Shown here piece by piece: positions 2,733-19,328 of a stretch of 64,000 nt of DNA (positions are counted from its first letter, which is position 1; each line of letters starts with the position of its first letter). The stretch is from NCBI RefSeq assembly GCF_056746865.1, contig NZ_CM163382.1; one strand, 5' to 3'. The notes under the pieces were generated by a model, which saw only the letters and a list, made by a program, of their open reading frames with translations, ran no database searches and had not been told where the DNA came from. A program made the translations under genes and the position numbers.

Positions 2733-4226
2733 TCAGAACTTCTGTTTTTTCTCCTCCACCTTCACCCCTTGTGTCGGTAGGCCGGTGTCATAGTCGCGTA
2801 CAACTGGCGAATAGCCATCTTGTGGACGTGGACGAAACGCCCCCATCCAGCGCGGCCGTGCATCTTTACGCCACGGACGCAGACTCCATTGGTAACTGCG
2901 GAACGGATCGCGAATTTTGTCCATGTAATCCAATAAGGCGTCATGCATTTTGCTGCGAACGTCTGCAAAACGGATATCATCGATCAGGTTATGCATTTCA
3001 TTTGGGTCATTACGGCGATCGTAAAGTTCATCACTGGTGAAGAGGTTGAGTACCAGTTTAAAGTCATCCGTCACCCAGCAACGCACCGGAATAAAACCGC
3101 CAAAGCTGTCATGCTCAATCTCGTAGCGGTTAAATTCCACCATCACGCCGCGTGGCTCTTTCACGGCAAGGATATTTTCCCCCGGCAGAATCTCTGGTTT
3201 TTCAATATCTGCCAGCGCCATCATTGTCGGCAGTAAATCGATATGACTGACTGGCGTATCGACCTGTCGCCGCTCCCCTTGCGGCGAACGGATGATCAGC
3301 GGAATGCGGGTGATGTCGTCATACATCGCCGCTCCTTTACTGATCAGCTTATGTGCGCCCATCATTTCGCCGTGATCGGATGTATAAATAACCCACGTAT
3401 TTTCACGTTGCTCTGGCGTTAAGGCATTGATGACCCGTCCGATTTGGTCATCAACAAAGTCATTGCAGGCAAAATAGAGCGGATGGTGATAAAGCCCGCC
3501 ATCACCGACTGGCGATGGCATCGCCTGCGCCCATAAGCGGTGATGTTCCGGTTTGTTAGCCAGGTCATCCTGTGCTTTCTCGCCCAGCTCGTAGTAAAAA
3601 TCAGCGTATTTCTCTAAATACTCCACCGGACAGGTGAACGGGTGATGCGGCTCATCATACGAAACCACCATCAGGAAGGGTTCCTCGGCGCGCGCGGGCT
3701 GTTGCAGAAAATCTACCGCCCGATTGCTGATGCGGTGCGCCCAGGTGAAGGTTCCGTCGATATGGTTCGCCTGTAAATCCTCAACGCTGTTTAGGCCATT
3801 GCGCCACAGGCTGATCTCTTTTTCCGTCAGTTCGCTAAGGTAGTTCGCCCCATCGAACCAGTAATCAGCGTCCCACTCCGGCGGACACTCGCCAGTGCCG
3901 AAATAGTCATGACCGTCGAGATGCCATTTGCCGATGTAACAGGTGTGATAGCCGGCATCCTTAAAGTAGCGCCCCATAGTGGAGATGTTTTTGCCTGGCG
4001 CGACGTTGTTGGTCCACGGGCCGGACTGGTTAGCGTAGATACCGGTAAATAGTCCGGCGCGTGCAGGCGTACAAACCGGTGAACAGGTGTAGGCGGAATT
4101 AAAGCGAATACCTTCCGCCGCCAGACTATCAATATTTTGCGTATTCAGCGGTTTACCGCTATAGCAACCGACCATATTGGTGGCCTGGGTATCGGTCATG
4201 ATGAACAGAAAATTGGGGCGTTTCAT
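2733..4226 (-). CDS. yidJ: sulfatase family protein
   Basis: 497 aa; sulfatase signature CTPARAGLFTG near N-terminus. Confidence 0.85.
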   Translation of the reverse strand: MKRPNFLFIMTDTQATNMVGCYSGKPLNTQNIDSLAAEGIRFNSAYTCSPVCTPARAGLFTGIYANQSGPWTNNVAPGKNISTMGRYFKDAGYHTCYIGKWHLDGHDYFGTGECPPEWDADYWFDGANYLSELTEKEISLWRNGLNSVEDLQANHIDGTFTWAHRISNRAVDFLQQPARAEEPFLMVVSYDEPHHPFTCPVEYLEKYADFYYELGEKAQDDLANKPEHHRLWAQAMPSPVGDGGLYHHPLYFACNDFVDDQIGRVINALTPEQRENTWVIYTSDHGEMMGAHKLISKGAAMYDDITRIPLIIRSPQGERRQVDTPVSHIDLLPTMMALADIEKPEILPGENILAVKEPRGVMVEFNRYEIEHDSFGGFIPVRCWVTDDFKLVLNLFTSDELYDRRNDPNEMHNLIDDIRFADVRSKMHDALLDYMDKIRDPFRSYQWSLRPWRKDARPRWMGAFRPRPQDGYSPVVRDYDTGLPTQGVKVEEKKQKF

Positions 4227-14391: not shown

Positions 14392-15639
14392 TTAGCGCTC
14401 AGTTTCGGTGATCCACAGCTGGCCACCTTCCATCCACGCCAGCCACTGACCATCCGGCGAGAAGACCACGGCGTCCGCAGAAGGTGGATTGGCGTGGTTT
14501 TCGGTTAAATACTCAACCTCGCCACTTTGCGCATGGGCACAAGCAATTCGATTATCCAGCACAAAGCCCAACCATTCTCCTGACGGATGCCAGTTAAATG
14601 CAGACTGAATATCCGTTTTGTTATGGGTTAACTGGCGCGGCTCGCCGCCCTGTGGCGAGATAAGCCACAGTTGCACAATGCCGTTATCATCACGCATTAA
14701 AAACGCGATTTGCGTACCCTGCGGATTACAGCGCACCCAGTGGCGCGGGACGTTGACTAACCCCGGATAAGCCCGATGGTGGGTAAAGGTTAAACGTCGC
14801 TGCACAACGCCACGCGGTGGCGCGGGCAGGGTTGTTTCCGTTCCGCTTAACGGCGCATCACCTGCTACTTTCCAGCCAGCTTCATCTTGCGGTAACTCAA
14901 CGATAAACAGCTCCGGCACTTTCTCGCCCTTTGGCGAAAGTGTATCGCCAATAAACGCCAGCGCGTGATTTCCTACCCATCCTTCTTCATAAGCACGATT
15001 GATTTCATTACTGCCAGGCTGCGGCGTGGGCGTGGTTTTACTTACCAGCACGCACCAGTGGCTGCCGCTGTATTCACGCGGATGCTGCTTTTGTATGTTG
15101 ACCGGGCCAAACGGTGCAGCAATACCGACGTTTCGCAAATCCAGCGCCGGATCGAGTTCATGCATTACATGGTCGTTATAGGTAAAGCTCACCCTTTCAC
15201 CGTTCGGGCTAAAGACATGTACATGACTGCCGCCGCGCAGCGCTCCTGGAGTGTACGGTGCGGTAATATCCATTGCATCGAGATTGCTCACCTTGCCGCT
15301 TTCAGCAATCACGCCGCGACGATGATGGAAATCGTAATGCCATGTTTCATCAGGATTTTCAGGTCCGTGGATGAAGACATATTTTTCTGACTTCGGATGA
15401 ACGGTCACCACGCCGACGCGTGCGCCCTGTGACGCGCGATAGATAACCTCGACCTCGCCGGTATGGATATTCACACGCTCAATGGTCTCGCCGGTAAACG
15501 ACGCGCCAGAAGGACGCACGTCAAATACCAGCCACTGGCTGTCGGGCGTCCAGATATTGGTATTGGTGAGCAGGTGATTACGGGGAGCAAAGGTTATCTG
15601 TTTCATGGCGCGGTCCTGATACAAAACGGGTCCCGCCAT
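14392..15639 (-). CDS. yidR: beta-propeller-like protein of unknown function
   Basis: about 415 aa ORF convergent with yidQ; start codon choice (first or second Met) uncertain. Confidence 0.7.
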   Translation of the reverse strand: MAGPVLYQDRAMKQITFAPRNHLLTNTNIWTPDSQWLVFDVRPSGASFTGETIERVNIHTGEVEVIYRASQGARVGVVTVHPKSEKYVFIHGPENPDETWHYDFHHRRGVIAESGKVSNLDAMDITAPYTPGALRGGSHVHVFSPNGERVSFTYNDHVMHELDPALDLRNVGIAAPFGPVNIQKQHPREYSGSHWCVLVSKTTPTPQPGSNEINRAYEEGWVGNHALAFIGDTLSPKGEKVPELFIVELPQDEAGWKVAGDAPLSGTETTLPAPPRGVVQRRLTFTHHRAYPGLVNVPRHWVRCNPQGTQIAFLMRDDNGIVQLWLISPQGGEPRQLTHNKTDIQSAFNWHPSGEWLGFVLDNRIACAHAQSGEVEYLTENHANPPSADAVVFSPDGQWLAWMEGGQLWITETER

Positions 15640-15706
15640 CATACTTCACAAGGACTTCACTTTCAGACAATAGTCTTTCGCCATCGTGATGAATGTGAGT
15701 GAAAAG

Positions 15707-16807
15707 ATGGAACATTTCGACGTGGCGATTATTGGCCTCGGCCCGGCAGGGTCGGCATTGGCGCGAAAGTTAGCCGGCAAAATGCAGGTGATCGCGCTGG
15801 ATAAAAAGCACCAGCATGGTACTGAAGGTTTCAGCAAACCTTGTGGCGGTCTGCTGGCACCGGACGCGCAGCGATCTTTTATTCGCGATGGACTGACGCT
15901 TCCTGTCGATGTGATCGCCAACCCGCAGATTTTCAGCGTCAAAACCGTCGACGTCGCCGCATTGCTCACGCGTAACTACCAGCGAAGCTATATCAATATT
16001 AATCGCCATGCTTTCGACTTGTGGATGAAATCTCTGATCCCCGCCAGCGTTGAGGTTTATCACGACAGCCTGTGTCGAAAAATCTGGCGTGAGGATGATA
16101 AATGGCATGTCATTTTTCGTGCAGACGGTTGGGAGCAGCATATTTCTGCCCGCTATCTGGTCGGTGCCGATGGTGCCAACTCGATGGTGCGGCGACATCT
16201 CTACCCGAACCATCAAATTCGTAAATATGTCGCTATCCAGCAGTGGTTCGCAGAGAAGCATCCGGTGCCGTTCTACTCCTGCATCTTTGATAATGCGATA
16301 ACTGACTGTTACTCATGGAGTATCAGCAAAGACGGTTATTTTATCTTTGGCGGTGCCTATCCCATGAAAGACGGTCAGACGCGTTTCACAGCACTGAAAG
16401 AGAAAATGAGCGCCTTTCAGTTCCAGTTTGGCGAAGCGGTGAAAAGTGAGAAATGTACCGTGTTGTTTCCCTCACGCTGGCAGGATTTTGTCTGCGGTAA
16501 GGACAATGCCTTTCTGATTGGTGAAGCGGCGGGATTTATCAGCGCCAGCTCGCTGGAGGGGATTAGCTATGCGCTGGATAGCGCAGAGATTCTGCGTTCG
16601 GTGTTACTGAAGCAGCCGGAGAAGAGTAACGCCGCCTACTGGCGCGCCACCCGCAAACTGCGTTTAAAACTCTTCGGTAAGATAGTAAAAAGCCGATGCC
16701 TGACCGCACCGGCTTTAAGAAAGTGGATTATGCGCAGTGGTGTGGCGCATATTCCACAGTTGAAAGATTATCCAACGCGTTTCACATCGCCCACCAGCAG
16801 GATGTAA
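15707..16807 (+). CDS. cbrA: FAD-dependent oxidoreductase-like protein (colicin E2 tolerance)
   Basis: N-terminal FAD motif [15 protein letters not shown]; start at MEHFD assumed; 3' end overlaps dgoT by 40 bp. Confidence 0.65.
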
Positions 16808-18060
16808 GAGAGCGCGCCAATCAACGCGACGGCGGAGATATAAACCAGTGCCGGGGCGAAACCGTAACCCTGCGCCAGGTACCCCACCACCAGCGGAACG
16901 GTGATGCCGCCCAGACCACCGGCAAAGTTAAACACGCCGCCGGTTAAACCAATCAGGCGCATCGGTGCCAGAGAAGAGACCAGCGACCAGGTAATCGAAG
17001 CAAAACCGTTGCCGAAGAATGCCAGCGCCATCAGGCACATAATCATCATCGGGTCATTGGTGTAGTTAGCGCCCATAATGCAGGTGGAGATCAGCAAGCC
17101 GCAGATAATCGGCGTTTTACGCGCAAAGCCCAGTGAAAAGCCCTTACGTACCAGCAGATCCGCGACCCAGCCAGAGAGCAGGACGCCGACAAACGCCGCG
17201 AGGAATGGCACAGTGGTCATAAAGCCTGCTTTCAGCGCCGTGATTCCTTTTTCCTGGGTTAAATAGTTCGGGAACCAGGTTAAGAAAAACCACAGTGTAG
17301 AAGCCACCGCAAATTGCCCAAGATAAACGCCGATCAGTTTACGATGGAACACCAGCTTCCAGTCTTTGGCTGTTAACGGCTGACGTGCCTCTTTTTTCAC
17401 CGGCGCATCACCATCCACCAGACCGCCGCCATCACGAATGTAATCCAGTTCAGCTTTGCTGATACCTTTAGTCAGGCGCGGCGGCTGATAAACCTTAAAC
17501 CAAATCAGCGACCAGATAATGCCGATACCACCGGTGACAATGAACACCCAGTGCCAGCTCAACATTTCCTGAATCCAGATCAGCAGCGGAGTCAGAAACG
17601 CCAGACCGACAAACTGACCAGACGTATAAAAACCAACGGCGGAAGCGCGTTCATGTTCCGGGAACCAGCTGGTCACCATCCGGTTATTGGTCGGGAAAGC
17701 GGGCGCTTCGAAAATACCGGTTATCGCGCGCAGACCAATTAATGACATTAATCCCGTGGCAAAGCCCTGGAATAAAGTCGCCACTGACCAGCCAAATATC
17801 GCAATAAAATAAGTCACGCGTGAACCTACGCGATCTAAGAACCAACCGCCGGGGATCTGGCATAACGTATAAAGCCATGCGAAGGCCGAAAATACATAGC
17901 CCATTTCCGCTTTCGTAATGCCGAACTCTTCCTGAATATGAGCGGAAGCCACGGCCAGGTTAGCGCGGTCAACATAACAAATGACCACCGTAATAAAGAT
18001 CATCACCAGCGTCAGATAACGCCGACGCCCCGGCTTTGCTGCATTAACGGGAATATCCAT
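16768..18060 (-). CDS. dgoT: D-galactonate:H+ symporter (MFS)
   Basis: 430 aa from [18 protein letters not shown] topology; heads dgo cluster. Confidence 0.85.
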
Positions 18061-18179
18061 AGCGAGCTTTCTCCAGATTTTGGGCATAGCGAAGCCGCTC
18101 ACCATGCCCTGTAATTTACAGAGGGTTATATTTTTGTATTACTGTTTTAGTGCCCGATGAGGGGCTTACGTGGCAGGAA

Positions 18180-19328
18180 TTACCACTCTGCTACGCTGTT
18201 ATCTTCATGACGCCAGAGCGGATTACGCCAGTCCGGGGCATTTTTACTGAACTCAATAACTTTAGCTTCGTCGATTTCCACGCCTAAGCCCGGTTTCGTT
18301 AGCGGTTTAAAGAAGCCGCCAACCATGCTGAAGTCTTCTTTGTTTTTCACAAAGTCGAGTAACTCCGCGCCTTTGTTGTAATGAATGCCCATACTTTGTT
18401 CCTGAAGTACGGCGTTATAGGAAACAAAGTCGATATGCAGACAAGCCGCCAGTGCAATCGGTCCGAGCGGACAGTGCGGCGCAAGTGTCACGTCATAGGC
18501 TTCTGCCATTCCGGCAATTTTGTAGCATTCGGTAATACCGCCTGCATGAGAGAGATCCGGTTGCAGAATCGAAATACCACCCGCCTCCAGCACACGTTTA
18601 AAATCGAAACGTGAGAACATGCGCTCACCCGCCGCCAGTGGAATATGCGTTTGTGCCGCCAGTTTCGGGTAGTATTCGGCTTGTTCCGCCAGCACCGGCT
18701 CTTCAATAAACAGCGGGCGATACGGCTCCAGTTCTTTAATCAGCACTTTCGCCATCGGCGCGCTGACGCGACCGTGGAAATCAAGACCAAACTCAATCTG
18801 ATTGCCAAAAGCTTCACGAATTTGTGCCACGGTGTTGACTGCCGCATCTACCGCGCGGGAGTTATCAATTAGCCCCAGCTCTTCACAACCGTTCAGTTTG
18901 AAGGTATCGAAGCCGATTTCGCGCAGGGTTTTTATGCCGTCGATAACATCCGCCGGACGATCGCCGCCGACCCAACTGTAGGCTTTAATTTTGTCGCGAA
19001 CCAGGCCGCCCATCAGTTGCCACACCGGCGCATTCAGCACTTTGCCTTTGATATCCCATAACGCCTGGTCGATCCCGGCGATGGCGCTCATCAGGATTGG
19101 ACCGCCACGATAAAATCCGGCGCGATACATCACTTGCCATAAGTCATTGATGCGCGATGGATCCTGACCAATCAAATAGTCACCCAGCTCGTGAACTGCC
19201 GCTTCCACCGTACGGGCGCGGCCTTCAATCACGGGCTCGCCCCAGCCGACCACGCCTTCATCGGTTTCAATTTTCAGGAACATCCAGCGGGGAGGTAAAC
19301 GATACGTGGTAATTTTGGTGATTTTCAT
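18180..19328 (-). CDS. dgoD: D-galactonate dehydratase (enolase superfamily)
   Basis: 382 aa, [32 protein letters not shown]. Confidence 0.9.

Follow-up and report, generated by a model that had tools for sequence, protein, structure and literature searches.

CbrA of Escherichia coli is an FAD protein that, when overproduced, saturates the alpha-isoprene unit of C55-P and of lipids I and II. This saturation protects C55-P and both lipids against colicin M cleavage, an activity reported by Helbig (2012) and Barreteau (2020) in the summary given by PMC8469651. The CreBC regulon includes cbrA, whose expression colicin M induces (PMC3599342). Archaeal geranylgeranyl reductases (GGRs), namely those of Sulfolobus acidocaldarius (3ATQ/4OPU) and Thermoplasma Ta0516 (3OZ2), share with CbrA the overall fold and an N-terminal FAD-binding GxGxxG motif and, in the account given in PMC8469651, a similar chemistry of isoprenoid double-bond reduction. 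They differ from CbrA in sequence (16-17% identity), in size (~450 aa) and in substrate, CbrA acting on C55-P and derivatives of it instead of on geranylgeranyl groups.

In the annotation of E. coli K-12 MG1655, cbrA (b3690, NP_418145.2, CBRA_ECOLI) is 1065 nt long, encodes 354 aa, stands in the order yidR, cbrA, dgoT, dgoD, dgoA, dgoK, dgoR, and overlaps dgoT by 4 bp. Short tail-to-tail overlaps that share stop-codon bases are common in bacterial genomes. Here we describe the same junction in a 64,000-nt stretch of DNA (assembly GCF_056746865.1, contig NZ_CM163382.1), referred to below as the window. The window agrees with K-12 in the neighbors yidR-cbrA-dgoT, in the cbrA start codon and in membership of the NCBIfam equivalog. 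It differs in having TAT where K-12 has TAG, in a 12-aa C-terminal tail that K-12 CbrA lacks, and in a 40-bp rather than a 4-bp overlap with dgoT.

The window protein scored 682.7 bits against NCBIfam equivalog NF008519 (PRK11445; cut-off 303), with residues 1-354 corresponding to positions 1-354 of the 355 in the profile, and it belongs to this equivalog by score and by near full-length coverage. Against TIGR02032 (GG-red-SF) it scored 115.7 bits, below the cut-off of 158.8, with an E value of 3e-33 over 1-292 of 297 profile positions; CbrA is clearly homologous to the geranylgeranyl reductases of that profile but falls under its trusted cut-off. The best Foldseek matches in the PDB for an AlphaFold2 model were the GGRs 4OPU, 3OZ2 and 3ATQ (E about 1e-19, TMq 0.67-0.76). 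The model has the GGR-type FAD-binding fold, and the motif GLGPAG occupies CbrA residues 10-15. A sequence search for a solved CbrA structure returned none, its sole match being a distant flavin monooxygenase (E 1e-4). The cbrA product of the window is an FAD-dependent reductase with a geranylgeranyl-reductase fold, and its 366-aa form would confer colicin M resistance.

The cbrA/dgoT junction in the window

Gene order in the window is that of K-12 and of E. coli strain 118UI, with cbrA between yidR and the dgo operon. The features of the junction are:

15707..16807, + strand: cbrA, long allele; 366 aa plus a TAA stop (ORF list)
15686..16807, + strand: maximal cbrA ORF; 373 aa from a GTG, with the ATG at 15707 giving 366 aa beginning MEHFDV
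16768..18105, - strand: dgoT (D-galactonate:H+ symporter); ORF of 445 aa with the PGAP start, an MFS transporter ending GDVKRVG
16769..16771, + strand: polymorphic cbrA codon TAT (Tyr355), TAG in K-12 (DNA alignment, codon tables)
16769..16804, + strand: cbrA run-on tail of 12 codons, antisense of the last dgoT codons
16805..16807, + strand: TAA stop of the long cbrA allele, opposite dgoT Ser-Tyr codons
16768..16773, - strand: dgoT stop TAA (16768-16770) and final Gly codon GGA (16771-16773)
16768..16807, both strands: cbrA/dgoT convergent overlap of 40 bp (4 bp in K-12)

The 40-bp overlap of the 3' ends had been pointed out in an earlier note on this DNA, and the ORF list for 14500-19000 places the shared segment at exactly 16768-16807. 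That note also gave CbrA as 366 or 373 aa depending on the start, both of which the ORF list returns, and gave a reference length of 354 aa, which is the length annotated in K-12 MG1655. The GTG start at 15686 (373 aa) was ruled out, as PGAP, the K-12 curation, the NCBIfam profile and 41 homologues begin at MEHFDV. Both genes of the overlapping pair are real and both frames are open through the shared 40 bp, according to the ORF list, the annotations and the profile; the 40-bp convergent overlap is a correct annotation and not an error.

A BLASTP alignment of the window protein with K-12 CbrA gave 341/354 identities (96%) and zero gaps, with the window protein running 12 residues further. In the DNA, the window reads GAT TAT CCA against GAT TAG CCA in K-12: base 16771 is T instead of G, and there is no indel. 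The K-12 stop lies 36 nt upstream of the one used in the window. The cause of the longer CbrA is one substitution, TAG to TAT, rather than a frameshift. The earlier note had suspected either an extension or a frameshift: the extension is there, 12 aa long, while the gap-free alignment disposes of the frameshift. In the cbrA frame the 3' end of the window gene reads CAG TTG AAA GAT TAT CCA ACG CGT TTC ACA TCG CCC ACC AGC AGG ATG TAA.

The change at base 16771 is silent in dgoT. Its last codon is GGA in the window and GGC in K-12, written TCC and GCC on the + strand and both encoding Gly, and the DgoT C-terminus (KRVG) is unaltered because 16771 is the wobble base of that codon. The terminal codon of cbrA consists of two bases of the dgoT stop plus this wobble base. 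The two frames have their third codon positions in common all through the overlap, so a base change that leaves DgoT as it is will mostly leave the cbrA run-on as it is too.

In the short (K-12) form cbrA and dgoT share TTAG, in which TTA is the reverse complement of the dgoT TAA and TAG is the cbrA stop. A purine (G or A) on the + strand at 16771 gives a cbrA stop and a pyrimidine (T or C) gives Tyr, DgoT retaining Gly in every case. With the T found in the window, cbrA would be read 12 codons further, antisense to dgoT, until the next in-frame TAA, and this read-on would yield both the 366-aa CbrA and the 40-bp coding overlap. The tail is presumably translated in vivo, given the absence of a stop ahead of it; it is most likely disordered and functionally neutral, its sequence being fixed by selection on dgoT and not on CbrA.

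Stop-stop overlaps of 4 bp are seen as TTAG in K-12 and as TTAA in Citrobacter, and the window represents the outcome when the shared base mutates; its 40-bp overlap departs from the 4-bp type in that one partner has lost its stop. Across dgoT, the + strand frame of cbrA contains 20 stops in 445 codons with a median spacing of 14.5 codons, so a run-on of 12 codons is typical of chance once the stop is lost. The extra overlap length is passive run-on and did not evolve as an overlapping coding region. We consider it highly probable that the junction carries a natural stop-codon polymorphism between tail-to-tail genes, that the long allele is common and old, and that the tail it adds is most likely neutral.

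Distribution of the alleles and direction of change

Megablast of window positions 15600-16950 located the region in 5421 of 5426 complete E. coli genomes. Alleles at the polymorphic base were counted in the 5426 genomes by megablast with 55-nt queries carrying the SNP at position 28, such that every 28-nt seed spans the SNP, and were assigned in all but about 280 genomes (5%). The T allele (TAT, Tyr) was present in at least 1376 genomes (25%) and the G allele (TAG, stop) in at least 3456. A further 308 G-allele genomes have exactly the haplotype of O157; these share with the K-12 query only a 15-nt run through the SNP, so they cannot be counted in the K-12 set. The A allele (TAA, stop) occurred in one genome, a K-12 derivative. 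No C allele (TAC, Tyr) was found at the locus in this census, the C query matching only plasmid-borne MFS paralogues. The near-empty A and C counts validate the census method.

The long allele is widespread, routinely annotated and already known, and it is not peculiar to one strain. The urinary isolate 118UI, obtained in Mexico City, matches the window at 100% identity over 15600-16950. The PGAP annotations of 118UI, ST131 strain 4993, CFT073 and O145 RM12522 give cbrA 1101 nt (366 aa), of which 40 bp are shared with dgoT; those of O157:H7 Z1812 and DSM 101139 give it 1065 nt. The RefSeq proteins of 366 aa, WP_001377132.1 (118UI), WP_001529490.1 (CFT073) and WP_001532050.1 (ST131), share the allele, the stop and the 40-bp overlap of the window; the DNA encoding WP_001377132.1 is 100% identical to the window, and the CFT073 and ST131 genes are ~4% different from it in nucleotides, elsewhere in the gene. 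The exact 366-aa protein is public on at least 1000 contigs under the name "colicin M resistance lipid reductase CbrA". K-12 is accordingly not a universal reference for CbrA length, 354 aa being one of two common alleles.

The only TAA cbrA stop among the 5426 genomes belongs to NZ_CP025268.1, a K-12 MG1655 derivative from Boston that otherwise has the K-12 haplotype (locus L059). Its TAA also turns the last dgoT codon from GGC to GGT, which is silent. Given its origin, the strain was probably engineered by recoding its amber stops to TAA. A change in a last codon that looks synonymous can be a nonsense or read-through change in a convergent neighbor sharing the stop codon; the effect bears on variant-effect pipelines and on genome recoding, the latter because the cbrA TAG is one of the K-12 amber stops.

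Outside the census, one genome per species was scanned, and the following states were recorded at the polymorphic codon:

E. albertii: TAT, CbrA 366 aa, same tail; dgoT remnant only
E. whittamii: TAC, CbrA 366 aa, same tail; 40-bp overlap, dgoT intact
Pseudocitrobacter vendiensis: TAT, CbrA 368 aa, same tail; 40-bp overlap, dgoT intact
Escherichia sp. E1V33: TAG, CbrA 354 aa; dgoT remnant only
Several Citrobacter, Enterobacter sp. ENT03 and Phytobacter massiliensis: TAA or TAG, CbrA 365-368 aa, own tail of ~14-17 aa; 4-bp overlap

Because three outgroups carry a Tyr codon, the 354-aa short form of K-12 may be the derived, truncated state, with the long form ancestral in Escherichia; this is the direction of change that we infer. 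Within E. coli, strains with T and strains with G are mixed on a cbrA gene tree, where the window groups with DSM 101139 (G), and CFT073 and ST131 (T) group with K-12 (G). The pairing of K-12 with CFT073/ST131 does not obviously match the relationships expected and suggests recombination at the locus. Both alleles are also found on the dgo-deleted background, G in O157 and T in O145. The interspersion and the presence of both alleles on this background imply, for the E. coli strains sampled, either repeated flips or recombination at the site; the direction proposed above is for the genus level.

The cbrA gene (window 15707-16768) is diverse in E. coli, with 2.6-5.2% nucleotide divergence between lineages. 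The window is only 95-96% identical to most genomes, a divergence above what we expected of a core gene.

The C-terminal tail and the shared 3' ends

Conservation of the CbrA family ends ahead of the tail. Residues 355-366 are outside the NF008519 match, which covers 1-354, and in 41 homologues conservation stops at H348-I349, the total lengths ranging from 353 to 386 aa and the tails being unrelated. The last helix of the AlphaFold2 model (mean pLDDT 83, pTM 0.83) reaches to residue 344; from 354 to 366 the model predicts coil, devoid of secondary structure, at pLDDT <50. Citrobacter cbrA has a TAA stop and a 4-bp overlap, yet the sequence past the stop still reads the tail peptide in the cbrA frame; as the peptide is conserved there though untranslated, dgoT explains its conservation. 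No independent constraint on both frames was found in the overlap, constraint on dgoT alone being sufficient to explain the conserved tail. In backgrounds with only a dgoT remnant, the tail has an R-to-C change in O145, and O157 has a T-to-G change in its untranslated post-stop region. Such changes where dgo is deleted would fit a segment under no constraint from cbrA. The tail looks inert, and we infer that it is neutral. Functional work on E. coli CbrA reportedly used K-12 strains, and hence the 354-aa form; if so, the tail is dispensable for the known activity.

Among the alternatives, the one that survives best, itself unlikely, holds that the tail is a functional C-terminal module that alters the activity, stability or membrane association of CbrA and that the alleles are under selection, for example through differing colicin M exposure across E. 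coli lifestyles. Major lineages (CFT073, ST131) do retain the long allele, as do other species of Escherichia, and both alleles recur on different backgrounds. The pyrimidine alleles of the outgroups, TAT and, in E. whittamii, TAC, both keep Tyr, which counts against a neutral reading. Many CbrA proteins of Citrobacter, Enterobacter and Phytobacter, 365-368 aa long, have a loosely similar tail (QP...GGL) of ~14-17 aa, and the closeness of the 366-aa Escherichia length to the 368-aa Citrobacter CbrA with its semi-conserved tail could hint that some tail is preferred. This evidence is met by the observation that constraint on dgoT fully accounts for the tail, the same virtual peptide being conserved where it is untranslated. 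The tail is moreover predicted to be disordered, lies outside the family profile, is unrelated across genera, and has changed on dgo-deleted backgrounds (the O145 and O157 changes above), and the 354-aa form is active if the functional work did use K-12 strains. A tail effect on CbrA, if true, would bear on natural variation in colicin M susceptibility; nothing here suggests one.

A related idea treats the shared base as an evolutionary toggle to which dgoT is blind, giving CbrA two C-terminal isoforms that differ in stability or activity and persist throughout Escherichia as a balanced polymorphism. Its two states, if it were true, would be kept by pressure from colicin M or a related lipid II-targeting bacteriocin. 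The recurrence of both alleles on different backgrounds is compatible with it; we nevertheless think it very improbable.

We attach as little weight to a role at the RNA level, in which transcription or translation converging across the common 3' ends would couple cbrA and dgoT and the longer translated overlap would alter that coupling. Neither allele leaves intergenic space for terminators, so the cbrA and dgoT transcripts must overlap, and the overlap contains one terminator-like hairpin, at 16789-16773 of the - strand. The hairpin count is, however, below the shuffle expectation (1 found, mean 1.6), and the transcript overlap is equal in the two alleles, which differ only in 36 nt more of translated sequence. 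No joint high expression is expected either, cbrA being in the CreBC regulon and dgoT under DgoR and galactonate control. A search of 15000-18500 against Rfam at E<=1 gave no match; in 16400-17200 the promoter scan found none and the terminator scan found one weak hairpin only. On the absence of an Rfam match, of a promoter and of hairpins in excess of shuffling, a non-coding element in the overlap was ruled out.

That the window contains an error of sequencing or assembly, or a pseudogenising frameshift private to its strain, has practically no likelihood: the one argument for such an artefact is the length difference from K-12, and it is opposed by the lack of an indel relative to K-12, by the 100% identical sequence in the independent complete genome of 118UI, and by the T allele in at least 1376 complete genomes and the Tyr codon in three other species.

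Under the preferred reading, a polymorphic stop codon with a neutral run-on, the long cbrA allele is ordinary and biologically of very little consequence. It is of mild interest that a wobble base silent in dgoT sets where CbrA ends and that the laboratory reference strain may have the truncated version.

Variation next to the 3' end of cbrA

The dgo operon is absent in O157:H7, O145, Escherichia sp. E1V33 and E. albertii, and an identical dgoT remnant adjoins cbrA in all of them. The remnant consists of the last 37 codons (residues 409-445), equivalent to window 16768-16881, and is followed by yidX and yidA. Its positions in the loci compared are:

L003:2669-2782, dgoT remnant in O157:H7
L058:1525-1638, dgoT remnant in O145
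L008 and L009:4065-4175, dgoT remnant in Escherichia sp. E1V33 and E. albertii

The same deletion boundary in two E. coli lineages and two other Escherichia suggests one old event spread by recombination, or an ancestral remnant.

E. coli E69 (CP089930.1), a separate species representative, has a cbrA with a different 3' end (L010:4030-4140), encoding a protein of 367 aa that ends …HISQMNCAGHYSESRVLYPK. No dgoT homologue was found within 3 kb of this cbrA. A TTAAAGGATTAA motif, like the usual cbrA end, occurs ~50 nt downstream, and the arrangement suggests a putative insertion or replacement at the 3' end.

The tails proper to several Citrobacter, Enterobacter sp. ENT03 and Phytobacter massiliensis (loci L012, L013, L021, L022, L026, L037, L040, L043 and L044, at about 4050-4107) loosely follow the pattern [ST]Q[DE][DE]QP..T.GGL[IV]K.., a segment missing in Escherichia and P. 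vendiensis. Many other genomes of the species scan, among them Kosakonia, other Phytobacter, Superficieibacter and some of the Citrobacter, have as convergent neighbor of cbrA a gene whose product of ~274-281 aa ends GVAYAIEKFVLN, at a spacing of -4 to +104 bp; this neighbor is probably YidA.

An MFS gene with a 3' end ~91% identical to that of dgoT is present on a few plasmids of E. coli and on one chromosome, four plasmid places being among the matches of the megablast with 15600-16950. The gene has the appearance of a mobile dgoT-like paralogue.

Gene starts at the locus vary by source. For dgoT, PGAP and the window ORF agree on a product of 445 aa, and the curated K-12 annotation has one of 430 aa, whose coding sequence would correspond to window 16768-18060, leaving 18061-18105 as the differing 5' end. 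For yidR, PGAP gives 404 aa, K-12 415 aa and the maximal window ORF 416 aa, the 5' end falling at 15607-15642.
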